A model generated the notes under the pieces. That model was not told the origin of the DNA and searched no databases. It saw nothing but the letters and a program-made list of their open reading frames with translations. Of a stretch of 64,000 nt of DNA, positions 7,760-33,365 are shown piece after piece. The stretch lies in assembly GCA_964548665.1 (NCBI GenBank), contig CAZJQL010000001.1:5462-69461 (forward strand), written 5' to 3'. Origin of the DNA: an uncultured Methanosarcinales archaeon. Lineage in GTDB: Archaea > Nanobdellota > Nanobdellia > Woesearchaeales > 21-14-0-10-32-9. A program made the position numbers and the translations under genes. How positions within the stretch are numbered: the first letter of the stretch is position 1; each line of letters begins with the position of its first letter.

Positions 7760-7760
7760 G

Positions 7761-9029: not shown

Positions 9030-9031
9030 AA

Positions 9032-9982
9032 ATGGCTGGATTTGAAACACCATCAATACTTTTATTCTTGATAACAATCCCTTTATTGTTCTACATTTAC
9101 AAGAAGATTATTGCCAAGAAAAAGAAAGATGCAATCACATTCAGCAACATTGGATTCATAAAATCCGCTCTTGGTGATAAGAAAAAATCAAAAAGAAATG
9201 ACTTGCTATTCTTCTTATGTCTTCTAATAATAACATTAATGATTATTGGTTTTGCAAATCCACACATCCCTCTTAAACAGACTAGAGAAGGTGTTAATGT
9301 GATTTTAGTTCTTGACGTCTCTGGTAGTATGCAGGCAACAGATTATCAGCCTACAAGGCTTGAAGCTATGAAAAAATCTGCAGAAATACTAATCAAAGAT
9401 CTTAAAGAAAAAGATCATGTGGGTATAGTGACTTTTGAGTCTGGAGCAACTACTGCAGCATATCTAAGCCCGTACAAAGATAAAGTTATTGAAAAACTTC
9501 GAAGCATTTCTCCGCATCAAGGACAGACAGCAATAGGCGATGGGCTTGCAATGGGTGTGGATATGGCGACAAGCATTCCGAATAAGAAAAAAGTCATAAT
9601 CCTGCTCAGTGATGGAGTAAACAATGCAGGAGTAATAAGCCCTCAAGAAGCGATTGCATTTGCAAAAACAAACAACATACAAGTTCATACCATTGGAATG
9701 GGTTCAGAGGGACAAGTAATATTAGGATATGATTGGTTTGGAAGACCTCAATACGCAGAATTCGATGCGGAAACACTCAAAACAATAGCTAAAGAGACTG
9801 GTGGAAAATATTTTCAATCAGTAAATGATAAAACACTTGAAAATATCTATAAAAACTTAAGCAAAGAGATAAAAAGAGAGAAAGAAGAAACAAATATCAA
9901 AGAATATTTCTTCTTAGCAGCACTGATAACATTCATAATCTATCTATACTTAAGATATGGTGATAAGAGGATAATACAATGA
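9032..9982 (+). CDS. von Willebrand factor A domain membrane protein (BatA-like)
   Basis: N-terminal TM helices; vWA MIDAS motif LVLDVSGSM; follows DUF58. Confidence 0.8.
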   Translation: MAGFETPSILLFLITIPLLFYIYKKIIAKKKKDAITFSNIGFIKSALGDKKKSKRNDLLFFLCLLIITLMIIGFANPHIPLKQTREGVNVILVLDVSGSMQATDYQPTRLEAMKKSAEILIKDLKEKDHVGIVTFESGATTAAYLSPYKDKVIEKLRSISPHQGQTAIGDGLAMGVDMATSIPNKKKVIILLSDGVNNAGVISPQEAIAFAKTNNIQVHTIGMGSEGQVILGYDWFGRPQYAEFDAETLKTIAKETGGKYFQSVNDKTLENIYKNLSKEIKREKEETNIKEYFFLAALITFIIYLYLRYGDKRIIQ

Positions 9983-11708: not shown

Positions 11709-12938
11709 ATGTTTAATAAGTATTTTAAGAATCTAAGTGTTGAAAAGAAGAATGCCTTGTGGCTCATTATCTTGTTTGGTGTAATCAGTCTTCTAGGGGA
11801 TATTATTTACGAGGGTGCAAGAAGCGTTAATGGTCCCTACTTGAACACATTGGGAGCAAATGCAGCAATCGTCGGCTTGGTTGTAGGTATTGGAGAATTG
11901 CTTGGTTATGCTATACGATTGCTCTCAGGATACTTCTCTGATAAGACTAAAGCGCATTGGTTCTTTACAATATTCGGATATGGCTTGCTTATTTCAGTTC
12001 CACTTCTTGCCTTGTCAAGCTATTGGCAATTTGCAACTATCTTCATAATTTTGGAGAGGATAGGCAAGGGTTTAAGAAGTCCTGCAAAAGACACAATACT
12101 TTCTCATGCTACAAAACAAGTAGGGACGGGAATAGGATTTGGAATAGCAGAATTCTTAGATCAGATCGGTGCAACAATCGGACCACTTATTTTCACATTC
12201 TTTTTTGTCAGTTTAGGATCTGCCCAAAAAACAGTCTCTGATTATCAGCACGGATATGCATTGTTCTGGTTGCCTTTTATCATATTAATGATGGTCTTAT
12301 TTTTTGCATACTTTAAAGTCAAAAATCCAGAAGCACTGGAAAAAGAGGACAAGATAAAAGAATCAAAAGGAATTCCAAAAATATTCTGGACTTATGCAAT
12401 ATTCTCGTTTGTTACAACTATTGGATTCATTAATTTTGCAATAGTAGGATATCATATGAAAGTGAATGGATTATTTTCAGATGCACAAATACCTCTGTTA
12501 TATGCGTTTGCAATGATGGTCGATGCAATTTTTGGTCTAATTGTAGGAAGACTTTATGATAAGATCAAAACAAAGCACAATCACGACCATTCAGGATTAT
12601 TATTGTTAATAGGACTTCCAATAGTTACTGCCCTTATCTTGCCAATGATTTTCTCGTTCACCCTTTCAATGATCCTAATCGGTGTATTCTTGTGGGGTGT
12701 CGTGATGGGCTCACACGAAACCATAATGAAAGCAGCAATCGCAGACATCACTGCAATCAACAAAAGAGGAACAGCCTACGGGGCATTTAATGTAATCTAC
12801 GGAATTGCATTGTTCATTGGAAGCGTGCTTTCAGGATTCTTATATGAGATATCGATTAATTTGATGATAACTGTACTCATGTGCATGCAAGTAATAGCAA
12901 TGATCATATTCTTTAAACTAAAAAAAGATTTGAACTAA
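11709..12938 (+). CDS. MFS transporter
   Basis: 409 aa, about 12 TM, MFS-type loop motifs. Confidence 0.7.
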   Translation: MFNKYFKNLSVEKKNALWLIILFGVISLLGDIIYEGARSVNGPYLNTLGANAAIVGLVVGIGELLGYAIRLLSGYFSDKTKAHWFFTIFGYGLLISVPLLALSSYWQFATIFIILERIGKGLRSPAKDTILSHATKQVGTGIGFGIAEFLDQIGATIGPLIFTFFFVSLGSAQKTVSDYQHGYALFWLPFIILMMVLFFAYFKVKNPEALEKEDKIKESKGIPKIFWTYAIFSFVTTIGFINFAIVGYHMKVNGLFSDAQIPLLYAFAMMVDAIFGLIVGRLYDKIKTKHNHDHSGLLLLIGLPIVTALILPMIFSFTLSMILIGVFLWGVVMGSHETIMKAAIADITAINKRGTAYGAFNVIYGIALFIGSVLSGFLYEISINLMITVLMCMQVIAMIIFFKLKKDLN

Positions 12939-12996
12939 AATTTATCTCTTATTTTGAATCCGCTCTGATTATTCATTTTAAATGATCATCTATTGC

Positions 12997-13114
12997 TATT
13001 CACGAATTTAACCATTCCAATCGCTACGTTGTTCTACGAGGGTGTTTATATAGGTATTTGAGCATCCCTCGACGTGAACATAGGAGGTAAACCACAATGG
13101 CAAAGAAAGCAGAC
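12997..13114 (+). promoter_or_regulatory. promoter/leader module copy B: TATA box tttatata (13045-13052), perfect 6-bp inverted repeat cgaggg(13037-42)/ccctcg(13066-71), SD, MAKKAD
   Basis: Direct repeat of 2861-2978. Confidence 0.55.
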
Positions 13115-13345
13115 AAATCGTTTTACACGTTAGCACAAAAAGTGCTCCAGGAACAAAACAAACCAATGCATTACGCAGACATAACAAAGGAGATCTTAAA
13201 GATCAAGGAAACCAAAGGCAAGACGCCAGAGCGAACAGTAATGGCAGTAATACTAAGAGACAAGCACAATATCTTTACAAGTGTAGGCGAGGGTATCTTT
13301 GGATTAAGCTCGTTTCAAAGTAGCCCAAAAGCTACCAAAGCTTAG
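13097..13345 (+). CDS. HARE-HTH domain protein (RpoE-delta/restriction-associated wHTH)
   Basis: 82 aa; the pattern A..VL......PMHY.DI...IL......GKTPE.TV.AVILRD...F..VGEGIFGL matches the HARE-HTH fold. Confidence 0.6.
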   Translation: MAKKADKSFYTLAQKVLQEQNKPMHYADITKEILKIKETKGKTPERTVMAVILRDKHNIFTSVGEGIFGLSSFQSSPKATKA

Positions 13346-13635
13346 AGAATTACGCTTGCCGCAACTATTCCTTTTTTGCTAAGGTGTGCAGAGAGCATTG
13401 AGTTAAACATTTTATTATGGCTAGAATATCTCAGATGTAAGAGTTCATGAACGATTACTTTGGATCTTGTCTGATAATTCTTATTGAGTAATGCGTATGA
13501 GAATGTGACTCTTCCCTTAGATGAACAGCTCGCCCATTTTCTACTCATTGCCCGTACATGAATTTCTTTAGGCTTCACCCCTATATCTTCTGCCCAATGC
13601 ATCACTTCTCTTTTGAAATCATTGACTGGAATCAT
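13342..13635 (-). CDS. DUF45/YgjP-like zinc metallohydrolase (short form), last gene of the Type I R-M operon
   Basis: SRKWASCSS...VIVHELLHL...HNKMF matches the DUF45 C-terminal catalytic half (HExxH). Start codon lies 2 bp past the hsdR stop. Confidence 0.65.
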   Translation of the reverse strand: MIPVNDFKREVMHWAEDIGVKPKEIHVRAMSRKWASCSSKGRVTFSYALLNKNYQTRSKVIVHELLHLRYSSHNKMFNSMLSAHLSKKGIVAASVIL

Positions 13636-16553
13636 TCGTTTGCACCTTTAAGCATCGTTGTTATCTTAGTGGTCAATTCGACAGTCTTTTTAACGGTTGT
13701 CCCTGATTTTACGAAAACTTTCTGGAGCTCTTGCTTTAATTTCCGCTCATGATCTTCACTTTTCTTCCAATGAGGATATTTTTCGAAAATATTTTTCATA
13801 CTGTTGGCTTTTTCTTCAGCATCACTTAAGCCTTCATCTTTTAATAGCCAATAGACTGAGAAGACGTCAGTGGACATCTTCATTTTCTTTTGTTCTTTTT
13901 TAGCGTGGTTTATCTCGGTAACGAGTTCTTTTAATTCATCAAGTGTTTCTTCAGTATCTTTTTGTCTTTGTTTGTAAAGCATAGAGATTAGCTCTGCTTT
14001 TTGGCCTATTGATACAAGGTATGGATTACTGCTTGCGCCATGCTCGATAGATATTCCGATGCTTCTTAAGAGATTGAATATTTTCTCTGTATCGGAAGAT
14101 TTGTTCTCATCAAGCTTCTTTAAAGTGGTCTCGTTTATCTCGTAAATTTCCAGAGTGGACTTTATCTTTCCGCTGTGGGTGTGTTCTTGGACAAGCTTCG
14201 CTGTTTTTCTTGTGAATTCTTTGTCAACAGATATTCCTGGTTCGTATGCTTCTCTTAATATCTTGAACATTCTTGCTAAGGTGTCAAATTCTTCAATGTA
14301 TGGTCTTAGGAATGCGTCTGGTGATAATATCTCATAGATGTCTGACATCTCTTTGAAGAATTGATAGAAGTCTTGTCTTTTTGTTTCGTCTTTGAAATAA
14401 TCGAGTACTGCTTCAACTGCTTTATCTTTGGTTTTTCCTTTCAGCAGCTTAAGATAATCTTTTCTTGCAGTAGTTATGAGTTCTTCAAATCGTTTCTTTA
14501 AGACTTCAAGATCTTTGACTACTTCAGTCACATCTCCAGAATCAAATGCGAGGGCTTTCTCAAGCTTGTCGAAAATTCCGACGAAGTCAAGAACAAATCC
14601 TGAAGGCTTCTTTCTGCCCTCTTCATCCTCATATGGTCTGTTGACTCTTGCAATTGCCTGCAATAAAACGTGATCTCTCATAGGCTTATCAAGATACATA
14701 CAGTAAAGGATCGGAGCATCAAATCCAGTCAATAATTTCTCAGTAACAATTAATATCTTCGGCTGTTTGTTAGGGCTTCTGAATGCTTTTCTTATTCTCT
14801 TTTCTTTTTCCGTTGTGATATAATATTTCGCTAAGTTTTCCTGGTCGTTATGTGCTGGACTGTAAACAACTTCTGAATATTCTTTTGGAAGATATTTGTC
14901 GATTTCTTCTTTGTATAATGCACACGCCTCTCTATCTACCGCAACGATAAAAGCTTTGTAGCCCATTGGCTCTACATTATTCTTGAAATGGTCTACTATG
15001 AATTTAGTGACTTTCTTTACTCTCTGCTTATTCTTCAGCATATTTTTGAGAGTGACTGCTTTTTCTAGGACCTTGTTTAATGATTCTATGTCACTTATTC
15101 CTTCTGCTTCTGCGAGGTTTAGGAATTCTTTTTCAAGAATTTCTTTCTCAGGTCTTATCTCATTAGGAGCTAATGTATAGTGGAGTTTGACTGTTGTTCC
15201 GTCTTCTATTGATTCTGCAATTCCATATTTGTCAAGATATCCTTTTGGAGGATCATCTCTTCCAAAGACCACAAATGTGCCTTTTCCATGAGAAGTCTTG
15301 TCAATTGGCGTTCCTGTAAATCCGAGATATGTTGCATTAGGTAAAGCTCCCATCAAGTAATTTCCTAAGTCTCCACCTGTTGTCCTATGTGCTTCGTCTA
15401 CAAGGACAATTATGTTTTTTCTGGTATTGATGTTTGCAGGTAATCCTTCAAACTTGTGAATCATAGAAATGATTAATCCTCTTGCGTCTCTTTCCAATAG
15501 ATCTTTCAGATGCTTTTTTGTTTCAGCAACTTCGATATGCTCAATGCCGACTGCAGTAAGATTTCCAAATAGTTGTGTCTCTAACTCATTTCTGTCGACA
15601 AGCATAATTACAGTTGGATTCTCGAAGAGCGGGTTTGCAAGGATTCTCTGGGCTGCAACAATCATGGTGAATGTTTTTCCGCTTCCTTGAGTGTGCCAAA
15701 CCAATGCCCTATTTTTCTTTTTGCTTGAAGCTCTCTCCACAAGCTTTTCAACTGCTCGCATTTGATGAGGTCTTAAGACGACCTTTTGCAGTTCATCATC
15801 TTGCCTTGTAAATAGTATGAAATGCAATAATGTTTTTACAAGCCTTTCCTTATCAAAGAAAGTCTTGACCATCTCTTCATAGTTCTTTGCAAGAGTGTCG
15901 GTCTTCCAATTGAAGACAGATTTCATTGACAACGACCATGTCGATGAATATAAGAAATGAATAATGTTTGTTGCAGTGTAGACTTGAAATAAGGTCATCG
16001 CTTCAGGAGTCTCTTTATGATATCTTCTGACCTGGTCTAATGCTTCTGCAATGATGGAGTCCCTGTTTACTGATCTTCCAATAAATTTAGCGACTGATTT
16101 TGTTTCGACAAAAAGGATAGGGACTCCGTTAATCAAAAACGCTACATCGTAACGATTTGTGTTTGTGCCGTTTGTATATGAGAATTCATCAGTAACTTGG
16201 AAAATGTTTCTTTTCGGGTTCTCATCGACGATTATGACATTTCTTTCTCTCTTTTCATTTTGAACAAATACTGTTTTTAATCCTCTTAAGTATTCCCACG
16301 CTTGAAGATTTCCCTCAATTCTTGCAGGCAATCGCTCAATCTTTTTGATGAGCTCTTCAATCATTATAGAGTCAATAAAATCAGAATTTAGCTTTCCGAC
16401 TTGTTCAGTAAAAACTTCCTTGAATAAAAGCCCAGTCTTTCCACCCCTAAGCCTAATTGCATCCTCTGGCTTGACATATTCCCATCCAATTTCACACGCA
16501 TATTGGATAAGTGTATTTTGGACTGCAGCTCTTTCGTTTCCCAATTTATTCAT
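13632..16553 (-). CDS. hsdR: Type I restriction enzyme R subunit
   Basis: 973 aa; N-terminal nuclease region, SF2 helicase motifs TQGSGKT and DEAHRT, C-terminal helical domain. Confidence 0.9.
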   Translation of the reverse strand: MNKLGNERAAVQNTLIQYACEIGWEYVKPEDAIRLRGGKTGLLFKEVFTEQVGKLNSDFIDSIMIEELIKKIERLPARIEGNLQAWEYLRGLKTVFVQNEKRERNVIIVDENPKRNIFQVTDEFSYTNGTNTNRYDVAFLINGVPILFVETKSVAKFIGRSVNRDSIIAEALDQVRRYHKETPEAMTLFQVYTATNIIHFLYSSTWSLSMKSVFNWKTDTLAKNYEEMVKTFFDKERLVKTLLHFILFTRQDDELQKVVLRPHQMRAVEKLVERASSKKKNRALVWHTQGSGKTFTMIVAAQRILANPLFENPTVIMLVDRNELETQLFGNLTAVGIEHIEVAETKKHLKDLLERDARGLIISMIHKFEGLPANINTRKNIIVLVDEAHRTTGGDLGNYLMGALPNATYLGFTGTPIDKTSHGKGTFVVFGRDDPPKGYLDKYGIAESIEDGTTVKLHYTLAPNEIRPEKEILEKEFLNLAEAEGISDIESLNKVLEKAVTLKNMLKNKQRVKKVTKFIVDHFKNNVEPMGYKAFIVAVDREACALYKEEIDKYLPKEYSEVVYSPAHNDQENLAKYYITTEKEKRIRKAFRSPNKQPKILIVTEKLLTGFDAPILYCMYLDKPMRDHVLLQAIARVNRPYEDEEGRKKPSGFVLDFVGIFDKLEKALAFDSGDVTEVVKDLEVLKKRFEELITTARKDYLKLLKGKTKDKAVEAVLDYFKDETKRQDFYQFFKEMSDIYEILSPDAFLRPYIEEFDTLARMFKILREAYEPGISVDKEFTRKTAKLVQEHTHSGKIKSTLEIYEINETTLKKLDENKSSDTEKIFNLLRSIGISIEHGASSNPYLVSIGQKAELISMLYKQRQKDTEETLDELKELVTEINHAKKEQKKMKMSTDVFSVYWLLKDEGLSDAEEKANSMKNIFEKYPHWKKSEDHERKLKQELQKVFVKSGTTVKKTVELTTKITTMLKGANE

Positions 16554-17083
16554 TTCAAATCCCCTAATAATTTCTCCATCTCAAAAATGAAGTTTTTAGC
16601 TCTCTTCAAAGAAGTAATTGCTTTAGAATGCTTCTCGACAGCAGTTGTTTCATACTGAAGAATGCCTCTTTTATTCCTTTCCTGATCGAATTCCTCAATT
16701 AACGTATCTGCCTTGATTCCAGGAAGGGCTTCATTCTGCGCTTCTTCGTACTCTTCCAATAATCTCTTCTTAAGTTTATTTCTTACATGAACAATAAGCG
16801 CATCAGCTGTAACTTTGTGAGGTATCTTATCCCCTACTTTGTAGCCTATCTTGAATAAGACTGCATTGGCCATATAAAACATCGAGTAATATGATGTGAC
16901 AATAATCCACAAATCTGATTTCTTGTTCTTCGCTAGAAATTCAGCAATCTCAATGCTATCATTGGAATTATTCAATAAGACTGTGATAATTTCTTCCCTG
17001 AATTGATGCTTTTTTAGCATACCTGATTGCAAGTATTCTCGGACATTAGCTTCTGCTTCCTTTATTCTTTTATCATCAAGCAT
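16550..17083 (-). CDS. HEPN-domain protein (putative toxin/RNase) paired with MNT
   Basis: 177 aa; all-alpha HEPN-like core (YYSMFYMANAVLFKIGYKVGDKIPH...). 8-bp overlap with the upstream MNT and 4-bp overlap with hsdR. Confidence 0.55.
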   Translation of the reverse strand: MLDDKRIKEAEANVREYLQSGMLKKHQFREEIITVLLNNSNDSIEIAEFLAKNKKSDLWIIVTSYYSMFYMANAVLFKIGYKVGDKIPHKVTADALIVHVRNKLKKRLLEEYEEAQNEALPGIKADTLIEEFDQERNKRGILQYETTAVEKHSKAITSLKRAKNFIFEMEKLLGDLK

Positions 17084-17642
17084 TGTTCATCAACCTATAA
17101 TAATCCTCTACTCCAAAAAGCACAATATTATGTTTAACTGCTTCAGACACGACGGTAAATTCCTTTGATTTTAGCATTGATTCAAAATTCTCATAAGTAA
17201 TATGAGTTAAGTGAATATTAAGAGGAAGCAAATTAACCTGAGTCTCAATCTTTTTAGAATTACTCGATATAAGCAATAAATCAATATCTGAACCTTTGGT
17301 CTGTTGACCCTTAGAATAAGAACCAAATAATAGCAGAATAAACTGCTCATTAACCTTAGCTAACCGATTATATAATACAAGGAAATTCTTGTCTTTTAAG
17401 AGCTCTTGAAGCCTCGTAAATTCGACTTGAAATACAGAATCATTGAACTTATGATTAAAAGAGCAAATAGTGGTGTTCCCCTGTTTTTTAAGACTAACCA
17501 CGCCTTCTTTCGCAAGATCTTTAAGACTCGTATAAGCGGATTTATAATTGATTTGCCTCTGAATTCCAATCTGCCTAATGCTAAATACTTTCTCCTGATT
17601 CTCGATAAGCAACTTCAATATATTCAAACGTTCATTATCCAT
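17076..17642 (-). CDS. minimal nucleotidyltransferase (MNT) with N-terminal wHTH
   Basis: LLLFGSYSKGQQTKGSDIDLLLI is the pol-beta-type NTase GS...DxD motif; N-terminal wHTH. Confidence 0.7.
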   Translation of the reverse strand: MDNERLNILKLLIENQEKVFSIRQIGIQRQINYKSAYTSLKDLAKEGVVSLKKQGNTTICSFNHKFNDSVFQVEFTRLQELLKDKNFLVLYNRLAKVNEQFILLLFGSYSKGQQTKGSDIDLLLISSNSKKIETQVNLLPLNIHLTHITYENFESMLKSKEFTVVSEAVKHNIVLFGVEDYYRLMNNA

Positions 17643-17682
17643 TGTAACCCATACAACTATGGTTTAAACCCATATATAAACT

Positions 17683-18219
17683 TTACTGTTTACTTTCGTG
17701 ATGTTCTTCCTTTTTCTTCCGCTTAAGCTTCTTAACAATCCAATCAATCACATTCTTCTTAATATCGAAATTAAAGACAGAAGCACTGATTAAATCTCCA
17801 ATAATGATAAAGATAAGAAATATATTGACGATAAAAACAACTTGATAATTGAAATAAAGCTTATTGTAAATAGCTACATAATTATTGTTCACAGTATCAA
17901 ATTTCTGATTGAGAATAGCAACATCATACCTTGAAATGTTAATCTCCTGCTTAAGATCTTCAATATCTTTTTTAGTTACGTTCTCAGTTATGAGACGAGT
18001 ATATTCAGCCCTGCACTGCTGTACATTCTGATCTAATTGACTATTTTGTTGCTTAAGGCCACTAATTTCAGAATCCTTCTGACCAACTTGAGTAATATAA
18101 GGAGCACACTGAGAATCAGTAGCTATCTTAGACAAAGAAGTAAAGACAGGAATCATAGCTAAGATGAACATCAAAGCCAAAAAGCCACCGACAATAACAG
18201 CAACAGGTCCTTCAGCCAT
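17683..18219 (-). CDS. membrane protein: TM - coiled coil - TM, basic tail; unknown function, inside the R-M operon
   Basis: 178 aa; N-terminal TM (AVIVGGFLALMFILAMIPVF), about 90-aa Q/N-rich coiled coil, second TM, KR-rich C-terminus; 1-bp spacing to hsdS. Confidence 0.45.
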   Translation of the reverse strand: MAEGPVAVIVGGFLALMFILAMIPVFTSLSKIATDSQCAPYITQVGQKDSEISGLKQQNSQLDQNVQQCRAEYTRLITENVTKKDIEDLKQEINISRYDVAILNQKFDTVNNNYVAIYNKLYFNYQVVFIVNIFLIFIIIGDLISASVFNFDIKKNVIDWIVKKLKRKKKEEHHESKQ

Positions 18220-18220
18220 C

Positions 18221-19516
18221 TTAAACCACCAAATCCTTCACTCTGACTTTAGCAGTCATAAGATCACGAAGCATAGAATTAAAGAACTCCTCAAGAGAAG
18301 CTTTCTTACGTTCCTCTGCTATGATCTTATCATCTAAAGCAGATAGAATATCTGATATTTGAATTTGAATATTTTTTTGTGGAACACCAATTTCAATATT
18401 ATCAATCAAATCTTTATTCAATCCACTTCTGTCTTCATCTCCTGTAATATTTCTAATTTTATCATAAATATTAGACAAGGCATAATGTAAATACATATAA
18501 TCTACTGATTCATTTGGGATAATGCAAACAACAGATTGATTAGATGTGCAAGGTATCTCCAGTGGTGCTGTTGTTCCTCTTGTTTTTCCTCTGCCAGCTA
18601 ATGCAATAACCACTGATTTAGGAGGTAACCATTTGGCATTTGAATTTTCCAATCCTTTTTTTGAAATAAAAGTATTCATTGATGCAATCTTTCTGCCTTG
18701 AACTTCTCCTGATTTCATCCAGGGGATCTCGGCAGGTTCCCAATACTCTTTTATTTCAGTTTTGGGAGTGCCACCTGCTATTAATTTGGAAAAATTCTTG
18801 ATTTTAAGAATTTTCCATTCGGCAGGAATTTTACCGATATCTGTATCTCGAAGCGTTACAGATTCAGCTTCTTCAGGAGTGGCCATTCCATAAGTGAACA
18901 AATGCTTCATCATGGATTTCTTCAATTCAGACAGTGAACTAATCACAGAATCCGTTTTCTCTTTTGATTCAAGTATGGCTAACAATACTGACGCTATTTT
19001 CTTCTGCTCGTCAATTTGAGGCAATATTGTAAGAAAGTTCTCAACAATTCCTTTGTTAATATTTTTCTGTGTACTCTGAATATTATGCATTGCTAACTGA
19101 GGAGCTAAATATTTCAATACAAAAGCACCAAACTCTACATTTAATTTTTCGTTTGGAATTATAGCGAGAATTGCCTGATTTGTTGCTACAGGAATTTTAT
19201 TTATTGCAGTCTCTCCAATTGTCGCATACATACTTAACAATAATGAATTTGGCGGAACTATCCAAGCACTTGATTCGTCTAATCCCTTTTTTGTGATAGT
19301 TTCTTTTGTTTTATACAAATAAATTCCGCAAGAGGTCATATCCTCTATAAGAACAAAAGGAATATCTCCATTAAAGTATTCCTTATTGCCTCGTTTAGGT
19401 GTTCCACCTGACCGCATCTTAATGGCTAAATCCTTTATTCTAATAAGATTCCAGCTTTCAGGTATCTCTCCCATTTCTGTTTGTTTTGTTCTTTCAAGGA
19501 CAGTTATATTTTTCAT
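18221..19516 (-). CDS. hsdS: Type I R-M specificity subunit
   Basis: 431 aa; two TRDs separated and followed by conserved coiled-coil repeats (LP..DEQKKIA; AEERKK...LL). Confidence 0.85.
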   Translation of the reverse strand: MKNITVLERTKQTEMGEIPESWNLIRIKDLAIKMRSGGTPKRGNKEYFNGDIPFVLIEDMTSCGIYLYKTKETITKKGLDESSAWIVPPNSLLLSMYATIGETAINKIPVATNQAILAIIPNEKLNVEFGAFVLKYLAPQLAMHNIQSTQKNINKGIVENFLTILPQIDEQKKIASVLLAILESKEKTDSVISSLSELKKSMMKHLFTYGMATPEEAESVTLRDTDIGKIPAEWKILKIKNFSKLIAGGTPKTEIKEYWEPAEIPWMKSGEVQGRKIASMNTFISKKGLENSNAKWLPPKSVVIALAGRGKTRGTTAPLEIPCTSNQSVVCIIPNESVDYMYLHYALSNIYDKIRNITGDEDRSGLNKDLIDNIEIGVPQKNIQIQISDILSALDDKIIAEERKKASLEEFFNSMLRDLMTAKVRVKDLVV

Positions 19517-21267
19517 TTTGATTCCTCTAATAAGCTGATGGGTTTCTTTTGATATTTTTCTGCTTTCTTCAAGAATAGTTTTGCTTTGGAAGGCTCGTGC
19601 AATGGTTTAATTGCTGCAGCTTTTATTCTCCATGCATCGCTGTTCTTCTCATTAAATCTGATCACTGCGTCGGCATCTTCTATTGCTTTATTCCATTGAT
19701 GCGTATCCAGGAAAGCTCTTGCTCTGTCCAATAAGAATTCTTCTTTTCTCCAGAGTCTTAATGCCTTATCAAAGTAATTCAATGCTTCTTTTGGTTTCTT
19801 TTTAGCTAATAGCACAACTCCTTTTTTATTTAGTACATAAGCATTTTTTGGAAAGAAGGTGTAGGCCAAATCAATAATTTCTTCTGCTGTTTGTATATTA
19901 CCAGAGTTTAAGAAAACAACAGTCTTATTTGACCAACCTAATGAGAAATTCTTGTCTTTTTCTATTGTTTTCTCAAAACACTCCAGAGCTAAATTAAGAT
20001 ATTTTTCTGTATTTTGATATTTTGAATTCTTCTCGTAAATAACTCCCTTGTTGTTTATTGAATTGACATTATCTGGCTCTTTTTTCAGCAGTTCTTCATT
20101 TAGTTTAAAGGCGTTTTTGAGGTCGATAAGTTCAATGTAAACATCTACTTTTAGGCTCTGTAGAACTGCTGATTTATTTACGTGCTCTTCTTTCTCATCA
20201 AGGAATTTCAAAGCTTCTTCTGATCTATCTAATGCTTTTAGTATCTCTGTCTTTGTTTGAATAGCGACAATAAAGATAGGATCAACTTCTAAAGCCTTTT
20301 CTACATAAGGCAGTGCTTCTTCAGGTTCACCTTGCCTATTTAGATTATGAGCCTTATTGTTTAATGCAAATTTATGTTTGGCATCAATTTCAAGAACAGC
20401 ATCATAGCAGACGGTCGACTCGTCAACCTTATCTATTCTTTCAAGAATAAATCCTTTGTTCAATAGTGCTTCTGTATTTTTAGGTGTTATCTCAAGTGAT
20501 TTATCCAAAAACATTAATGCATCGTCTTCTTTTTGTAATGCGAAGAAGAACATGCTCATTTTGGAGTAAACTAAAGCCTTGAGATTTATCTCAGTATCTT
20601 TCATATTGATTAATGCATTCTTGAGCTCTTCAGCAACTTCATGAGGATTATTCAGATTAATAGTTTTTGTAGTATTGAATTGGAATTGAATACCAAATCT
20701 TTTTCCTAAATCAGTAGACTGTTGAATTGCTGTTTCTGGTTTCTTTATATCGATTAATGGCGGAACTTCCTCGTCAGGAAAATACGCTTTGCATATGTCT
20801 GGAATCTCAAAAAGAAGATCTAAGAACTTTGTTCCTGTCCAATCGTTTATTTCGCACCTGTTCTTTTTATTCCAATTATCCATATCATCTTTGCAGTCAG
20901 GGGTTGAATCGGAATTCGATAGTATAAAGAATCTTTTTATTCCTTGATCTTGGGCTTTTTGAACTTCTGTAGAAAATTGTTTAAAATTAACTCCTGCTTT
21001 TTGTCTCTTGCATTGAAACCAGCATTTCTCACGTTTTTCTTCTTTGGCAATTTTTACAATAAACTCGGCTTCTAAGTCTCTGCCACCATCTCCTCCTTTT
21101 CCTCGAGTAATTGGATTAATAAAGTTATTTCTCTTGATGATATCATAGCAAAGATTCTGGAAATCGTCAGGAGATAATTCATTGAGAAGTTTCTTCCATT
21201 CTTCTCTTTTTTTAATCTCTTTTTGCTTCATATTAACATAACCTCTCCACCCAGAATTTAGCTTCAC
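19513..21267 (-). CDS. Mrr_cat-type PD-(D/E)xK nuclease domain fused to a C-terminal TPR-repeat array
   Basis: N-terminal roughly 170 aa: RGKGGDGGRDLEAE...WFQCKRQ matches the Mrr catalytic core. The rest is about 400 aa of TPR-like repeats. Confidence 0.6.
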   Translation of the reverse strand: MKLNSGWRGYVNMKQKEIKKREEWKKLLNELSPDDFQNLCYDIIKRNNFINPITRGKGGDGGRDLEAEFIVKIAKEEKREKCWFQCKRQKAGVNFKQFSTEVQKAQDQGIKRFFILSNSDSTPDCKDDMDNWNKKNRCEINDWTGTKFLDLLFEIPDICKAYFPDEEVPPLIDIKKPETAIQQSTDLGKRFGIQFQFNTTKTINLNNPHEVAEELKNALINMKDTEINLKALVYSKMSMFFFALQKEDDALMFLDKSLEITPKNTEALLNKGFILERIDKVDESTVCYDAVLEIDAKHKFALNNKAHNLNRQGEPEEALPYVEKALEVDPIFIVAIQTKTEILKALDRSEEALKFLDEKEEHVNKSAVLQSLKVDVYIELIDLKNAFKLNEELLKKEPDNVNSINNKGVIYEKNSKYQNTEKYLNLALECFEKTIEKDKNFSLGWSNKTVVFLNSGNIQTAEEIIDLAYTFFPKNAYVLNKKGVVLLAKKKPKEALNYFDKALRLWRKEEFLLDRARAFLDTHQWNKAIEDADAVIRFNEKNSDAWRIKAAAIKPLHEPSKAKLFLKKAEKYQKKPISLLEESK

Positions 21268-22159
21268 TTATTAGTTGTTTTGAGATTTCTTCAGAATTAT
21301 CAAAATAAGACGATAAAGCTGTTGTAATATTGCTTAACATGGAATCAGTTGCCAAATCTTTTAATGAAGGATTCTTTAAGGTATCTTCTATTTTTTGTTG
21401 ATTATCATGTATTTTTTTAAGATCTTTATCATTCATAAATCGTGATGCCAGAAATCCTATGTCTCCTGCAATGATAGGATCGACAATAGAAATCTGGCTT
21501 AAGGCTAATGCTTCTGAAATAGTCTGTATTGAGAATATATCCTCTATTTCCAGAACTTCTCCTATCGTTTTGTAGTTAGTTTCATAATCATAATCCTTTT
21601 TCCAATAGATATTCTTTAGGTCAATAACTGCAAGAAGACTTATTATGCATTTAGCGTTTTGATATTTCGAATATATCTCTTTTTCAAACCACTCCTCAAG
21701 ATCTTTTCGTGTGCTTAGATTTTTCGGCACTTTAGATGGCGGAATTATGCTTAATGCTCCACCAAGATTCTTAGATCCATAATTTTTCTCTATTTCTGTC
21801 TTTATGAATTTGAAATTCTTGCCATCAACTTTCTGATTGGCATATTGAAAAATGATTATAGGAAGAGGTTTTGAATATTTTTTAACTAAATTCTCTTTAG
21901 ATATTCCTTTTCTTTTTAAGGAAGTTATGACATAGCTATAATCTTTTTCAGTCTTCTCTTTGTCACTCAATGCTTCCTCTATTTTTTTATTCTTCGTCTC
22001 TACATCTTGTTTAAGATTCCTATTTTCTTCAATTAATAAGTCAATAAAACTCTGGTTTTGTATTTCTTGTTTTTTCTTTTTACTAAAAATTGAGATAATC
22101 TTATCTAGGACTTTACTTACAAACCACCCTATTATTGATTCTAACCACATCCTATTCAA
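21233..22159 (-). CDS. hypothetical protein: N-terminal TM helix, coiled coil, unknown C-terminal domain; between hsdM and the Mrr-TPR gene
   Basis: 308 aa; overlaps hsdM by 8 bp and the downstream gene by 35 bp (operonic). Confidence 0.4.
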   Translation of the reverse strand: MNRMWLESIIGWFVSKVLDKIISIFSKKKKQEIQNQSFIDLLIEENRNLKQDVETKNKKIEEALSDKEKTEKDYSYVITSLKRKGISKENLVKKYSKPLPIIIFQYANQKVDGKNFKFIKTEIEKNYGSKNLGGALSIIPPSKVPKNLSTRKDLEEWFEKEIYSKYQNAKCIISLLAVIDLKNIYWKKDYDYETNYKTIGEVLEIEDIFSIQTISEALALSQISIVDPIIAGDIGFLASRFMNDKDLKKIHDNQQKIEDTLKNPSLKDLATDSMLSNITTALSSYFDNSEEISKQLISEAKFWVERLC

Positions 22160-23669
22160 ACCCCATCTGCTCTAGGATTTTCTTGAGTTTTTCGTCAGCT
22201 TGTTTTCTTTCTTCTTCTGCTTCTCTTAACTGAACATATGCATCTTCAAGATCAAGTGTTTCATCAGTGCCATTCTGTGCAACGTATCGTGATGGAGAAA
22301 GGTTGTAGTCGTTCTTTGTTATTTCTTCAGCAGTCACTATTTTGCTTACTCCTTCCTCTTCTTTCCATTTCAAGTAGATTGATGCAATCTTGTCTACTGC
22401 TGAATCTGGCATGAAATTCTTTGGCCTTCCTTTCTCAAATAGCTTAGAGCCATTAATCAATAGAACTTTATTCTTGTGTTTCTTATCTTTATTTATGATA
22501 AGAATTATTCCTGGAGCAGTTGTATTATAGAATAGGTTTTCAGGCAATAATAGAACGGCTTCAATTATATCTGCTTCTATGAACTTCTTTCTTATGTCTC
22601 TTTCTCTGTTTGATCCTGCATTTCCTGAGCCACGAGATACTGCCCCTGTGTCTAAGACTACTGCTATTCTTCCTTTATTCTTTAGGGAAGCGAGCATATG
22701 TTGGACCCAACCCCAGTCTGCACTTGACGTTGTTGGATATCCGTAAATGAATCTTCCATATGCATCATTTTCGTAAGTGCTTTGAGGAAAACTGTCTTGA
22801 TTCCACATTGGATTAGCAACGACAATATCGAATTTACGCAAGTGACTGTCTGCTGTTGTGAATGCTGGCCTATTCATTGTGTCGCCAAGAGCTATATCTG
22901 CTTCCATATCGTGAATAAATGCATTCATTTTAGCCATAGCATAAGTTGTATGTAGGCTTTCTTGACCAAAGAATTTCAATGGTTTTACTTTTGTGTTGTC
23001 TCCATGTTTCTCTCTGAATCTCAAGAAACTCTTAATCAATAGTCCGCCTGATCCTAAGCAGGGATCGTATATTTCCTCTCCTTCTTTTGGGTCGAGAATG
23101 TGTGCCATAAGTATTCCTACTTCTTTTGGCGTATAGAATTCTCCTGCACTTTGCCCTGATCCTTCTGCGAATTTTCTTAAGAGGTACTCGTATGCTCTTC
23201 CTATTAAGTCTGGCTCAACATCTTTCTGACCAAGCCTATGTTTGTTTAATGTATCAATTAATGCTTTGATTTTATCGTCTGTGATTATTCTTTGGCCTGC
23301 AGCTGTTGCGTTGAAATCAACTATGTCTATGACTCCTTGCAGTTTAGGGTTTTCTCTTGCTATTGCTCTGACTGCGTCAGTAAGGTATTCTCCGAGTCTT
23401 GTGCTTTGTTTTATTATGTTTGACCATCTTGCATTTTCAGGAAGATAGAATCTTACGAGTGTGTGATCTTCTTCAACGAATTCTTTTGCAGTCTTTATGT
23501 CTTCATATTCTTCTGATAATTTTTGTATTTCATCGTCGAATACATCGCCAAGTCTTTTCAAGAATATAAGTGGTAAGATATAGTCTTTGTATTTTGGTGC
23601 GTCTATTTCCCCTCTGATTTTACACGCTGCTTCCCAGAGCCATCCTTCGAGTGTTTTGATATCTAGCAT
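22152..23669 (-). CDS. hsdM: Type I R-M N6-adenine DNA methyltransferase subunit
   Basis: 505 aa; HsdM N-terminal domain, SAM-binding motif I, catalytic NPMW (motif IV). Confidence 0.9.
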   Translation of the reverse strand: MLDIKTLEGWLWEAACKIRGEIDAPKYKDYILPLIFLKRLGDVFDDEIQKLSEEYEDIKTAKEFVEEDHTLVRFYLPENARWSNIIKQSTRLGEYLTDAVRAIARENPKLQGVIDIVDFNATAAGQRIITDDKIKALIDTLNKHRLGQKDVEPDLIGRAYEYLLRKFAEGSGQSAGEFYTPKEVGILMAHILDPKEGEEIYDPCLGSGGLLIKSFLRFREKHGDNTKVKPLKFFGQESLHTTYAMAKMNAFIHDMEADIALGDTMNRPAFTTADSHLRKFDIVVANPMWNQDSFPQSTYENDAYGRFIYGYPTTSSADWGWVQHMLASLKNKGRIAVVLDTGAVSRGSGNAGSNRERDIRKKFIEADIIEAVLLLPENLFYNTTAPGIILIINKDKKHKNKVLLINGSKLFEKGRPKNFMPDSAVDKIASIYLKWKEEEGVSKIVTAEEITKNDYNLSPSRYVAQNGTDETLDLEDAYVQLREAEEERKQADEKLKKILEQMGFE

Positions 23670-23681
23670 TTTGATTTACCC

Positions 23682-23819
23682 CTATTTCTTTTTGCGAAGA
23701 TCTTCTTCCATGAGTTTTTCGAATTGTCTTGAAACTATCCATCCTTCTTTTTTACAGAGCTCTCTGTATTTCTCATATAATTCAGAGTTTACCTTCAACG
23801 TGATGTTCTTTGTACTCAT
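23682..23819 (-). CDS. ribbon-helix-helix (CopG/Arc-like) small DNA-binding protein, first gene of the R-M operon (candidate controller)
   Basis: 45 aa MSTKNITLKVNSELYEKYRELCKKEGWIVSRQFEKLMEEDLRKKK: beta-strand then two helices. GAGGGGG SD. Ends 12 bp before the hsdM ATG. Not in the ORF track. Confidence 0.5.
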   Translation of the reverse strand: MSTKNITLKVNSELYEKYRELCKKEGWIVSRQFEKLMEEDLRKKK

Positions 23820-23968
23820 AAAACAACCCCCTCACTGGACATTTACACGCACATACTTATAAATGTTGCTATCGTGTAGAACACATTTCAGAATAAGTCA
23901 GGATTTACTTACCAAAAAGTGTCAATATTTAAGAAAATTTATAGAAGTCATAAGCAAAACATAGGACT

Positions 23969-24460
23969 TTATTCTCTTTTAGGTCCTTTCATTATTGCAT
24001 TACACCCATCACAAACTGGGGCTTGCTTAATTGCTACACTGACTGGAATCAGTTCTCTTTTATTACACCTAACGCATAGGCGATTAATAAGCGATGGATC
24101 TGGAGATCTGCTTTTAGGGAATACCTCATTCATTAATTCAAACGCTTTATCTTTGAAGAATGCATTAAAGCTTGTATGTATGGTTTTTTGTGTTTTATAA
24201 TTGCTCATTGAATCGGTTAGGTTCAAACACATTGGCTTTTTCTCGGCATAGAGTTCTGGCCAGTTCTCACGAAATTTGACATCATCTTCAGCATAAAAGA
24301 CACGAATTAAATCGCTCTCTTTCAATTTTATCGCAGTAGTTTCATCAGTTTTTGATAAATCAATGATTTGCAAGACTGCAATCTCTTTGAATATATTCAA
24401 AACATATCTTATGTGTTCTTCGTTCTTCCCGCCAATAATGGTTATTTTCTCGCTTAACAT
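23969..24460 (-). CDS. hypothetical protein with C-terminal CxxC...CxxC zinc ribbon
   Basis: 163 aa; C-terminal CVRCN...CDGCN; 1-bp gap to the ligase gene. Confidence 0.4.
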   Translation of the reverse strand: MLSEKITIIGGKNEEHIRYVLNIFKEIAVLQIIDLSKTDETTAIKLKESDLIRVFYAEDDVKFRENWPELYAEKKPMCLNLTDSMSNYKTQKTIHTSFNAFFKDKAFELMNEVFPKSRSPDPSLINRLCVRCNKRELIPVSVAIKQAPVCDGCNAIMKGPKRE

Positions 24461-24461
24461 T

Positions 24462-25259
24462 TTATTTGTCCTCCCTCACTCTTATTATTCTCGGAAATCT
24501 TAGTTTCTCAAAATCTCCTTTATTGAAAGATAGCTCAATTGTTGAGCCTATAGAATAATCTGCAGAGCTCATCACAGTCCCTGTTTTCTCGTTTTCTGAA
24601 ATATACTTGTAAACCCATGCTTTGTTGTCTTTTGTCTGTTTTTTCTCTATGATCTTGACGTCAATTGTTCGAATGGGTTTCATTTTAATCCAATTGAAGC
24701 GAGAATTTGGCTTGTAGCTTTCAAGATTCTTTATTACAATACCTTCAAATCCCGATTCTATAAGTTTCTTGTAAAGTCTTTCAACGTCGACGATTGTATT
24801 TGTAAATGTGTTTGGAACAATGTTTAAGCTATCATTCTCCTGGACAAAGAAATTGATGTGCTGTCTTCTTGTTACATAATCGGATTCAATCAAGCTGTTG
24901 CTATCAACTTCTAAGATGTCAAAAACAAAGAAGACAAATCTTTCATCGGAAAACAATTCTTTGGCAATTGCACGATGAGAACCTACAACTTTTCCTTTCT
25001 TTAATACGGCCATTTCACCATCAAGAATAATTCTTTCTGGAAGTATCCCCTTTCTAAGATCTTCTGCAATGGACTTATATCTGCTTGAATAATCCTTGCC
25101 ATTACGTGTAATGAGCTTTATTTCTGTTCCATTCTTTTCAAGAAGAATCCTTACCCCATCTATCTTAGGCTCTAAAGCAACAGCATCATTATTGTAGATA
25201 AAAGTTTCCACCTCTCCCTCTCCAACAAGCTGTGGCTTAAAGCTCGTCACATTTATCAT
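24462..25259 (-). CDS. minimal ATP-dependent DNA ligase (NTase + compact OB, 265 aa)
   Basis: Motif I EPKIDGVR, III LDGEMAV, IV EGIVIK, V WIKMKP, VI RFPRIIRVREDK; no DNA-binding N-terminal domain. Confidence 0.8.
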   Translation of the reverse strand: MINVTSFKPQLVGEGEVETFIYNNDAVALEPKIDGVRILLEKNGTEIKLITRNGKDYSSRYKSIAEDLRKGILPERIILDGEMAVLKKGKVVGSHRAIAKELFSDERFVFFVFDILEVDSNSLIESDYVTRRQHINFFVQENDSLNIVPNTFTNTIVDVERLYKKLIESGFEGIVIKNLESYKPNSRFNWIKMKPIRTIDVKIIEKKQTKDNKAWVYKYISENEKTGTVMSSADYSIGSTIELSFNKGDFEKLRFPRIIRVREDK

Positions 25260-25596
25260 CCTTCCTTACCTCCGACAAATCTGCATTTAATCTCTTGATG
25301 ACCCAACATCCTTGACCTTTAGAACTATGAGAACTCTTGAAGTATACCGCGAGAAGAGGAACAATATTGAACTCAATAGCCTTCTCAATTATTCCATGAA
25401 GGCCAGTCATTCTATAAACTACTTCTCGAGTACTTTTGACTTCCACCAAGAAAACCTCTTTTTTAGAGAATAATACTGCATCGCAGACAGAATATTGCCT
25501 TCTACCAGAAGCTGCAACTCTTTCTGTATGATATCCTTTATCTTTCATCATGTTGCAGAAGTCCCGTTCATATTGGAGATGACTTTTCAATCTCAT
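25237..25596 (-). CDS. hjc: Holliday junction resolvase Hjc (archaeal PD-(D/E)xK)
   Basis: 119 aa; GYHTERVAASG...CDAVLF...LVEVKST matches the Hjc E-D-E-K catalytic arrangement. Confidence 0.75.
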   Translation of the reverse strand: MRLKSHLQYERDFCNMMKDKGYHTERVAASGRRQYSVCDAVLFSKKEVFLVEVKSTREVVYRMTGLHGIIEKAIEFNIVPLLAVYFKSSHSSKGQGCWVIKRLNADLSEVRKDDKCDEL

Positions 25597-27115: not shown

Positions 27116-27244
27116 CGTCTATACCTCCAGAATTAGTAAGGAATAACCAATATAAAGCCCTAATTGGTAAGAAATATAGTAAGCTTAGTAAGAAAAGAAT
27201 AGAAAAAGAATTATAACAGGAAAACGCCCTAAATACCGAAGTAT

Positions 27245-27982: not shown

Positions 27983-28043
27983 TTATATCCTCCCTTTTTC
28001 TCTTGAAAAGGAACTTTATTTATATAGTTTTCTTTGATTTCGT

Positions 28044-32235: not shown

Positions 32236-32257
32236 TTAGTTTATAGAACAATCATTA

Positions 32258-33085: not shown

Positions 33086-33156
33086 GTTTCTGAGAATTTA
33101 AGTTCATTTATAAATTTTCCGATAGTTATCACTTTTGAGTAATAAATAAAATAAGT

Positions 33157-33332: not shown

Positions 33333-33365
33333 TAAAACAAAGAAAAAGAGCTTTGTTTAAATTGT

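Follow-up and report, generated by a model that had tools for sequence, protein, structure and literature searches.

A crowded archaeal Type I restriction-modification operon that probably takes in other defense modules at two internal junctions

The chromosome of an uncultured archaeon carries a complete and probably active Type I restriction-modification (R-M) operon, and we think it likely that the two internal junctions of this operon take in other defense modules, with several mostly independent defense layers residing at one locus. RHH, hsdM, hsdS, hsdR and a gene for a YgjP-like peptidase would form the backbone, and the hsdM|hsdS and hsdS|hsdR junctions would act as landing sites at which four modules have been gathered: p308, Mrr_cat-TPR, p178, and a wHTH-MNT/HEPN pair. 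In the window, by which we mean the whole stretch of 64,000 nucleotides that was analyzed, all ten genes lie on the minus strand; two of the inserted genes separate hsdM from hsdS, and the other three separate hsdS from hsdR. In gene order, with the promoter-like elements, the features are as follows.

23856..23863, minus strand: TATA-like element TTTATAAG, putative main promoter P1, 44 nt upstream of the RHH start codon
23682..23819, minus strand: RHH, 45-aa ribbon-helix-helix-like protein, putative operon controller/repressor
22152..23669, minus strand: hsdM, Type I methyltransferase subunit, 505 aa
21233..22150, minus strand: p308, 305 aa from ATG (308 aa from TTG at 22159)
19513..21231, minus strand: Mrr_cat-TPR, 572 aa from ATG, with a PD-(D/E)xK head, a TPR array, and a C-terminal PISLLE tail
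18221..19516, minus strand: hsdS, specificity subunit, 431 aa, two target-recognition domains
17683..18219, minus strand: p178, small two-pass membrane protein
17643..17682, minus strand: 40-bp intergenic gap between p178 and MNT, putative internal promoter/operator P2
17076..17642, minus strand: wHTH-MNT, 188 aa, predicted N-terminal winged-helix region plus minimal nucleotidyltransferase
16550..17083, minus strand: HEPN-like protein, 177 aa, partner of MNT, whose gene it overlaps by 8 nt
13632..16553, minus strand: hsdR, restriction/translocase subunit, 973 aa
13342..13635, minus strand: YgjP-like protein (former DUF45), 97-aa short zinc-peptidase module with an HELLH motif

These ten open reading frames, all of which are full length, lie where a preliminary description of the DNA had placed them. 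That description also had adjacent genes overlapping or separated by 1 to 12 bp throughout, which is true of most junctions, but p178 and MNT are 40 bp apart. The overlaps of 8 and 35 bp that it gave at p308 and Mrr_cat-TPR exist only if translation is taken to begin at TTG and GTG; the public gene calls (P0001, 305 aa, for p308 and P0012, 572 aa, for Mrr_cat-TPR) use in-frame ATG codons instead, which leaves a 1-nt gap at both. Nine consecutive same-strand junctions measure 40 nt or less, and the packing of the genes exceeds chance expectation. Runs of six or more T are absent from the 10.5 kb of the operon's sense strand, against 9.1 expected from the window's other genes. Because the junctions are tight and oligo-T runs are absent, the inserted genes are very probably cotranscribed with the Type I operon.

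The core genes carry the features expected of a Type I system. HsdM has both domains that mark a Type I methyltransferase subunit, N6_Mtase (PF02384; 3.7e-96) and HsdM_N (PF12161; 4.1e-25), along with motif I (DPCLGSG) and motif IV (NPMW). Methylase_S (PF01420; 1.5e-46) matched HsdS in two stretches, corresponding to two target-recognition domains, and PADLOC's Specificity_I also matched the protein (4.6e-79). HsdR joins an N-terminal PD-(D/E)xK nuclease to an SF2 translocase (HSDR_N, 2.1e-24; SWI2_SNF2, 7.2e-61; T1R_D3), scored 477 bits against a cutoff of 284 with TIGR00348 (1e-142), and contains D136...E150xK152, GSGKT, and DEAH. At the two ends of the operon, the RHH protein has a weak match to Pfam RepB-RCR_reg (0.0049) and homologs directly upstream of hsdM in two related loci (L010 and L019), and the YgjP-like protein matched PF01863 (5.8e-21), with HExxH at residue 63. 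Since a homolog of the latter follows hsdR in every related locus with downstream sequence, we take the predicted peptidase gene to be the conserved final gene in operons of this Type I family. It is conceivable that insertions broke the operon and left a decaying, inactive locus whose arrangement has no function, and the separation of hsdM from hsdS could indeed upset subunit stoichiometry. We consider this very improbable, however, as catalytic motifs are intact in full-length genes, the junctions are tight with no premature oligo-T runs, and the same split layout with intact genes recurs in many relatives.

Of 36 homologous loci that contain hsdM and hsdR, drawn from bacteria and archaea, half (18) are compact, and the other 18 carry cargo of varied kinds at the same two junctions, hsdM|hsdS and hsdS|hsdR. 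Among the 37 loci, the window operon has the largest load (five genes in four modules) and the largest distance from hsdM to hsdR (5.6 kb). The 77 insert open reading frames of the relatives include SLFN_AlbA_2/HATPase_c_4 in 13, MNT in 5, Fic in 3, and HepT, GmrSD, and SIR2_2 in 2 each, with AAA_13, RhuM, Mrr_cat with Mrr_N, and PDDEXK_3 among the further families. One MNT-HepT pair lies between hsdS and hsdR in L017, and L034 has two such pairs; L017 also encodes a Kiwa-like pair, a KwaB-like protein with a 4TM protein beside it. Judged by these families, the cargo of the relatives is typical defense material, unrelated and interchangeable between loci.

Three of the four kinds of module in the window are not confined to this setting: MNT/HEPN-type pairs, Mrr-TPR, and p308 also occur free-standing or in other contexts (we sampled eight contexts for Mrr-TPR, six for p178, and five for p308). 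The preliminary description favored a single transcription unit over a set of separate cassettes. Its single unit agrees with the very probable cotranscription, but its case against cassettes does not survive the comparison, given the even split between compact and cargo-bearing relatives, the free-standing homologs, and a TATA-like element before MNT. It had also proposed that relatives lacking the inserts, together with inserts from ordinary housekeeping families, would overturn its reading; such relatives do exist, but the inserts are not housekeeping families.

Genes embedded in Type I R-M operons have been published before (Makarova 2013, PMC3632139; Payne 2024, 10.1101/2024.01.29.577857; TgvAB, PMC11411939), and the Mrr and MNT/HEPN proteins match PADLOC candidate families; the suggestion that the Mrr-TPR and the two membrane/coiled-coil proteins have no described counterpart passes over this work. 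The guilt-by-embedding approach of Payne et al. 2024 (10.1101/2024.01.29.577857) covered Type I R-M, BREX, DISARM, and Hma, and the window shows the arrangement it relies on, namely, non-core genes on the same strand nested between core genes, with matches to the candidates PDC-M05 and PDC-M58A. It differs from those systems in that five genes in four modules share one operon, the host is an archaeon, and p178 and p308 have no PADLOC model.

HEPN-MNT has been described as an abundant predicted toxin-antitoxin system, and the pair in the window has a promoter-like element of its own. The hsdM backbone, moreover, is clearly horizontally mobile, given its identity of 60 to 79% to 80 loci across many bacterial and archaeal phyla. 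These points would suit a scenario in which the MNT/HEPN pair, and possibly other inserts, are addiction or mobile modules that hitchhike in a mobile R-M operon and add no virus resistance. This selfish or stabilizing role strikes us as improbable. Embedded genes often defend in experiments (PMC11411939; 10.1101/2024.01.29.577857), the cargo of relatives belongs mostly to defense-tied families, the gene composition of the inserts resembles that of the host, and a search of the locus found no integrase, transposase, tRNA, or flanking repeat.

The two proteins of this pair differ in how well they match known families. MNT matched Polbeta (6.3e-8), NTP_transf_2 (8.8e-8), and, over its full length (residues 4 to 180), PDC-M05A (7.6e-14). 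Its active site, GSx10DxD (GSYSKGQQTKGSDID at residue 107), falls within the GSx(9-13)DxD pattern of MntA, and MntA is also its best PDB match (5yep, E = 0.012); with the NCBIfam MntA model it scored 27 bits against a cutoff of 60. The winged helix is predicted from a reading of the N-terminal sequence. The HEPN protein has a weak match to Pfam HEPN (PF05168; E = 0.0019, below the gathering score; profile positions 4 to 113 of 117) and a match to PDC-M05B (7.7e-8) at residues 115 to 172. The adjacent genes thus match both models of PADLOC candidate PDC-M05, with the models applied without a curated cutoff, and this candidate traces to the list in Payne et al. 2024 of cassettes embedded in defense systems. 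We found no Rx4-6H motif anywhere in the HEPN protein, which has RNKRGILQY at that place, and no match to PF01934 (HepT). Because the HEPN protein lacks the catalytic His, MNT/HEPN may not be a toxin-antitoxin pair.

Several named systems were considered for the pair and rejected. The model for Hailong HalB (NF051895) scored 27 bits, where the cutoff is 190, over the 32-residue active-site motif only. A PrrC/RloC anticodon nuclease does not fit, since neither the HEPN (177 aa) nor the MNT protein (188 aa) has an ATPase domain and Rx4-6H is absent. The type VII toxin-antitoxin system MntA-HepT (Shewanella SO_3165/3166, PDB 5yep) resembles the pair in that a GSx10DxD MNT comes first and the overlapping gene after it encodes a HEPN-fold protein, but on the toxin side the window offers only the weak PF05168 match in place of HepT (PF01934), again without Rx4-6H, and its MNT carries an extra N-terminal region predicted to be a winged helix.

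The pair sits between hsdS and hsdR, which we take to be the position of prrC in the E. coli prr locus, a correspondence that had been pointed out earlier. PrrC, a HEPN-family protein encoded between hsdS and hsdR of EcoprrI (Type IC), sets a precedent for an integrated, R-M-dependent system, in which the Type I enzyme would have some or all of the embedded proteins as its accessory subunits or guards. Under such an arrangement, p178 could, for example, tether the complex to the membrane or gate it there, HsdM/HsdS could be under surveillance by Mrr-TPR, and a block of restriction could lead MNT/HEPN to induce dormancy. The prrC-like position, the tight or overlapping junctions, and the oligo-T depletion all speak for integration, which we nevertheless regard as an unlikely alternative. 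PrrC is a single protein that combines an ABC-type ATPase with a catalytic HEPN and is held inactive by the R-M complex, whereas the window has a separate wHTH-MNT partner and its own promoter-like element; with neither Rx4-6H nor a PrrC-type ATPase domain in the HEPN protein, the R-M-guarded abortive infection read from the position of the pair finds no direct support. Half of the homologous operons, furthermore, do without an insert and the rest carry unrelated cargo, and Mrr-TPR, p308, and MNT/HEPN-type pairs all occur with no Type I genes nearby.

Mrr_cat-TPR bears on the same question. It combines Mrr_cat (PF04471; 3.3e-8) with matches to many TPR families and belongs to a conserved archaeal family with more than 100 full-length archaeal homologs. 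An alignment of 25 sequences has D52 and K75 invariant and Q or E at position 73, in keeping with D...(E/Q)xK, and the head matches PDC-M58A. The protein has in common with E. coli Mrr, a Type IV modification-dependent endonuclease, the PD-(D/E)xK core of Mrr_cat, but the winged-helix DNA-binding domain Mrr_N of that enzyme gave no match here, and an array of TPR repeats (~370 aa) and a conserved PISLLE tail stand in its stead. Four of eight contexts place Mrr-TPR between hsdM and hsdS (L094, L095, and L092 besides the window), and it is stand-alone in the other four (homologs in L090, L091, L096-98, and L099). Its presence in the identical slot of two different Type I families (L094, L095) could indicate a functional dependence on HsdM or HsdS, as an integrated system would have it. 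We propose instead that Mrr_cat-TPR is self-contained and probably works alone as a nuclease in restriction or sensing, with the TPR array and C-terminal tail probably regulating the PD-(D/E)xK head. TgvAB, a GmrSD-like Type IV system in the VPI-2 Type I operon of Vibrio cholerae, is independent of HsdR restriction activity (PMC11411939), and the C. jejuni Rlo genes are likewise embedded in a Type I locus (Miller et al. 2005, cited in PMC11411939); by analogy, Mrr-TPR may add a further nuclease-based restriction activity to the operon that surrounds it, although it is a single gene and its predicted nuclease belongs to another family, Mrr_cat fused to TPR rather than DUF262/DUF1524.

The case for integration also draws on p178. 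The two-pass topology proposed for it earlier agrees with the two strong transmembrane helices predicted in all seven family copies, and the protein runs from a short acidic N terminus through TM1, a coiled coil of ~100 aa with two invariant cysteines (C38 and C69), and TM2 to a basic C-terminal tail. The family numbers 5 proteins in 5.8e9 and has no match among PADLOC models. All six of its contexts are inside Type I operons, with none other found so far; each of them shows the gene translationally coupled to hsd genes, and two (L019 and L088) have a 20-nt overlap between its end and the hsdR start. With this exclusive context and the hsdR overlap, p178 resembles a dedicated subunit more closely than it does free cargo. 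It may serve an archaeal Type I R-M lineage as a dedicated membrane component that links the restriction complex to the cell envelope, for instance for sensing or positioning at the site of viral DNA entry, or as a membrane effector that fires when restriction fails, and Mrr-TPR could be a second dedicated partner; we consider this unlikely. Most of p178 is predicted to be extracytoplasmic, and only the basic tail of ~30 aa could reach the enzyme. As a dedicated component, p178 would expose a coiled-coil hairpin with its cysteines on the outside and keep the basic tail in the cytoplasm.

In the other uncharacterized insert, p308, an amphipathic helix at the N terminus is accompanied by a coiled coil and by a C-terminal region that is globular and conserved; the AF2 model of the protein is of low confidence. 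No match was found in Pfam, PADLOC, or NCBIfam; a word-index search returned 6 related proteins and a profile search 111 representative clusters. The preliminary description called it a transmembrane protein, a label that suits its family, in which 36 of 55 members have an N-terminal transmembrane helix, but not p308 itself, which has no hydrophobic segment above the standard threshold. Homologs elsewhere lie outside Type I loci, in unrelated defense-like contexts (five sampled). The family is rare and, by prediction, mostly membrane anchored, and p308 is embedded cargo and a candidate defense module.

Only two archaeal TATA-like motifs occur on the minus strand of 13300-24000, and both sit in the operon's only two gaps of more than 12 bp. 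One is the element upstream of RHH; the other, TTTATATA at 17673-17680, lies 38 nt before the MNT ATG, in the gap that also holds a near-palindrome (ATGGGTTTAAACCAT) and a direct repeat (TATGGGTT). By their motifs, P1 and P2 are putative promoters. Returning to the reading that we prefer, in which the operon has gathered separate modules, wHTH-MNT/HEPN would bring its own promoter/operator, with autoregulation via the winged helix being probable. Transcription would proceed from the promoter upstream of RHH and from a second one before MNT, the latter also driving hsdR. The modules would be expressed together with the R-M genes from these two promoters and would therefore provide several mostly independent defense layers from one locus.

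Because the nesting of defense genes in Type I operons is already documented, the window operon is a crowded example of it. To that record it adds three inserted proteins without prior study, one of which, p178, has been found so far only inside Type I operons.

The host is an archaeon, and ten consecutive ORFs occupy positions 13342-23819 of the minus strand, which bears out the gene chain of the preliminary description.

Genes of the Type I operon, in gene order
23682-23819, minus strand: ribbon-helix-helix-like (RHH-like) protein, 45 aa; weak RepB-RCR_reg match
22152-23669, minus strand: hsdM, 505 aa; N6_Mtase (3.7e-96) and HsdM_N
21233-22150, minus strand: p308, 305 aa from its ATG; no match in Pfam, PADLOC or NCBIfam
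19513-21231, minus strand: Mrr_cat-TPR, 572 aa from its ATG; Mrr_cat (3.3e-8) and many TPR families
18221-19516, minus strand: hsdS, 431 aa; two Methylase_S stretches
17683-18219, minus strand: p178, 178 aa; nothing above noise in Pfam, PADLOC or NCBIfam
17076-17642, minus strand: wHTH-MNT, 188 aa; Polbeta/NTP_transf_2, and PADLOC model PDC-M05A (7.6e-14)
16550-17083, minus strand: HEPN-like protein, 177 aa; Pfam HEPN at only 0.0019, PADLOC model PDC-M05B at 7.7e-8
13632-16553, minus strand: hsdR, 973 aa; HSDR_N, SWI2_SNF2 and T1R_D3; TIGR00348 (1e-142)
13342-13635, minus strand: YgjP-like protein, 97 aa; PF01863 (5.8e-21), HELLH motif

The catalytic motifs of HsdR, HsdM, MNT, the Mrr head and the YgjP-like peptidase are intact. 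Among the five inserts, MNT, HEPN and Mrr found matching models, but p308 and p178 did not, and p308, which had been labeled a membrane protein, needed correction because its window copy has no segment above the TM threshold. Homologs of the RHH gene lie immediately 5' of hsdM in two of the compared loci, L010 and L019, and a YgjP-like module stands 3' of hsdR wherever downstream sequence is available (the window and 34 related loci). The HExxH-bearing YgjP-like (DUF45) protein of the window is 97 aa long and aligns with no more than the C-terminal half of its Pfam model.

Hjc, PCNA and an ATP-dependent ligase adjoin the operon, and a ribosomal-protein/SecY operon that includes S4e spans 50-64 kb. 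Directly 5' of the operon, a compact replication/repair cluster with two large unknowns (23969-30830, minus strand) encodes a 163-aa unknown, a minimal ATP-dependent DNA ligase (265 aa), an Hjc-like resolvase, a 515-aa protein without a Pfam match, PCNA, and a 928-aa protein without a Pfam match. Further out are two beta-CASP/metallo-beta-lactamase RNase J-like paralogs (438 and 429 aa) around a small histidine-kinase-like protein (30919-36428, minus strand) and, 5' of an MFS transporter, DUF58, BatA/VWA and a 514-aa unknown of the aerotolerance Bat type (8139-11523, plus strand). No Rfam family or tRNA was detected in the window.

The chain could be a single purpose-built unit, as originally proposed, or a defence island nested within a co-transcribed Type I operon. 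In gene order the junctions measure +12, +1, +1, -4, +1, +40, -8, -4 and -4 nt. Spacing of 1-12 bp throughout, as first described, thus fails at one junction, the 40-bp gap before MNT, while the others are tight; the reported overlaps of 8 and 35 depend on start-codon choice, since upstream TTG and GTG starts turn the second and third junctions into -8 and -35. The gap (17643-17682) contains TTTATATA 38 nt 5' of the MNT ATG, a near-palindrome, ATGGGTTTAAACCAT, and a two-copy direct repeat, TATGGGTT, and it resembles a promoter plus operator for wHTH-MNT.

We relied on counts of TATA motifs and oligo-T runs in place of a scan for sigma-70 promoters and intrinsic terminators, which are bacterial signals and inapplicable to an archaeon. 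Archaeal TATA-like motifs occur at only two places on the operon sense strand, in the 40-bp gap and 44 nt 5' of the RHH gene; the typical position of these motifs elsewhere in the window is about 30 nt ahead of start codons. Oligo-T serves as the archaeal termination signal, and the sense strand contains no runs of T6 or longer over 10.5 kb, versus 9.1 predicted from the window's other genes, and 12 T5 runs (13342-23819, minus strand), versus about 25 expected. This depletion may reflect selection against oligo-T termination in a long operon, or it may reflect an origin in foreign DNA. From these sequence signals we infer that transcription starts at two promoters and reads through the operon; the second promoter, ahead of MNT, would serve MNT, HEPN, hsdR and the YgjP gene.

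We searched with HsdM, taking one genome per species, and recovered 80 loci at 60-79% identity. Since loci at this identity are spread over many bacterial and archaeal phyla, the backbone is horizontally mobile. Of the loci, 36 contain hsdM together with hsdR. Half of these (18/36) are compact, with hsdS alone between the two genes; the other 18 carry varied extra DNA at the hsdM-hsdS junction, the hsdS-hsdR junction or both, a synteny pattern that speaks against the single unit of the preliminary description. The window's load between hsdM and hsdR, 5.6 kb, is the largest among the 37. A Pfam scan of 77 insert ORFs identified Schlafen/AlbA_2 with HATPase_c_4 in 13, MNT in 5, Fic in 3, and HepT, GmrSD and SIR2_2 in 2 each, as well as DUF3800, YhcG PDDEXK, AAA_13, RhuM, Mrr_cat with Mrr_N, and PDDEXK_3. 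Locus L017 has an MNT-HepT pair at its hsdS-hsdR junction, and locus L034 has two such pairs. These inserts in relatives indicate that the two junctions are general landing sites for swappable defence cargo.

The hsdM-hsdS junction of L017, a homologous archaeal Type I operon, has a Kiwa-like pair (11722-13195), consisting of a 4TM protein (169 aa) and a KwaB-like protein (320 aa), and two further homologous archaeal Type I operons contain small membrane proteins unrelated to p178: a 1TM coiled-coil and a 3TM protein in L032 (4492-5279) and a C-terminally anchored 187-aa protein in L037 (2917-3480).

The MNT/HEPN pair matches PADLOC candidate PDC-M05, which was defined from a cassette embedded in defence systems by Payne et al. 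2024 (10.1101/2024.01.29.577857), whose catalogue of 17,432 genes nested within BREX, DISARM and Type I R-M systems is the source of the PDC candidates. We read the extra N-terminal region of MNT, which matched no domain model, as a putative winged helix. The HEPN protein has RNKRGILQY in the position of the Rx4-6H motif, and comparison with PDB sequences gave nothing significant; its lack of the catalytic His qualifies the reading of the pair as a true RNase toxin-antitoxin, which it may be. EcoprrI is a Type I locus with an embedded PrrC, but we rejected that identity for the window's pair, which has neither an ATPase domain nor the Rx4-6H motif. Hailong (HalB) was likewise rejected after family-model and motif checks.

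Mrr_cat-TPR belongs to a well-conserved family with more than 100 full-length archaeal homologs (33-83% identity), found in DPANN lineages, Methanococcoides and Methanobacterium. When 25 sequences were aligned, D52 and K75 did not vary, position 73 was Q or E, and a C-terminal PISLLE tail proved conserved as well. In the window, this tail (KPISLLE, 19513-19540) lies beside the TPR array. TPR arrays typically bind short C-terminal peptides, and the proximity suggests autoinhibition or head-to-tail assembly. The gene sits at the hsdM-hsdS junction in four of eight distinct contexts (the window, L094 at 83% identity, L092, and L095, a different Type I family ordered hsdR-hsdM-X-hsdS) and is free-standing in the other four (L090, L091, L099 and a Methanobacterium locus near Shedu- and Kiwa-type genes). 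A metagenome scan with Mrr_cat-TPR yielded just 4 loci, and no real homologs of either Mrr_cat-TPR or p178 turned up in plasmid and viral collections.

The nearest syntenic relative, L094 (228-6982; hsdM 74% and Mrr_cat-TPR 83% versus the window), runs hsdM, Mrr_cat-TPR, hsdS, a DUF8426/Mrr_cat protein, DUF4145 (a HEPN subfamily) and, at the contig end, wHTH-MNT (34%), making it a second operon with both Mrr_cat-TPR and, 3' of hsdS, wHTH-MNT. In L090, a small RHH-like ORF (7708-7857) just 5' of the free-standing gene bears a weak likeness to the window's RHH protein (E = 0.002).

The p178 family comprises 5 proteins among 5.8 billion, and further copies occur in L019, L010 and L092. With the L092 copy left out, seven copies were aligned, and every one has two strong TM helices, two invariant Cys in a coiled-coil loop of about 100 aa, and a very basic C-terminal tail; the positive-inside rule predicts that the loop lies outside the cell and both termini inside, and the AF2 model is all-helical with low confidence. 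Each of the six known contexts is inside a Type I operon. The gene lies between hsdS and hsdR in the window, L019, L010, L089 and L088, where it is the sole embedded gene, and between hsdM and Mrr_cat-TPR in L092; in L019 and L088 the end of the gene and the start of hsdR share 20 nt. The p308 family is rare (about 110 sequence clusters, the majority with an N-terminal membrane anchor), and neither its profile against PDB sequences nor Pfam scans of 55 members revealed a known domain. The window is the only case seen of p308 ahead of Mrr_cat-TPR.

In archaea the operon probably began as RHH-hsdM-hsdS-p178-hsdR-YgjP, the order seen in L019 and in L088, which has no detectable RHH. Mrr_cat-TPR would have entered next at the hsdM-hsdS junction, as in L094, followed by p308 in front of it, and the MNT/HEPN cassette, with its own putative promoter, would have landed between p178 and hsdR. 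Insert and backbone showed no clear difference in composition, and a search for flanking repeats or att sites found only short, chance-level repeats.

Makarova et al. 2013 (PMC3632139) had pointed out that R-M loci can contain extra co-expressed genes, and TgvAB, encoded within a Type I operon of V. cholerae, does not depend on HsdR restriction activity (PMC11411939, which also cites the C. jejuni Rlo genes). With these published embedded genes as precedent, the window is a case of a kind already described. The evidence gives no support to a purpose-built unit with an R-M-guarded abortive layer and fits better with a co-transcribed Type I operon in which a defence island is nested. Of remaining interest are the uncharacterised archaeal candidates, above all p178, so far confined to Type I operons.

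Antiviral defence has been explored far less in archaea than in bacteria. The locus shows that defence genes are embedded in archaeal operons in the same manner, with two junctions in common in a Type I family shared with bacteria, and it offers three candidates for defence: the Mrr_cat-TPR nuclease, p308 and p178. Should p178 indeed partner with the restriction enzyme, Type I systems would gain an accessory subunit of a new type.
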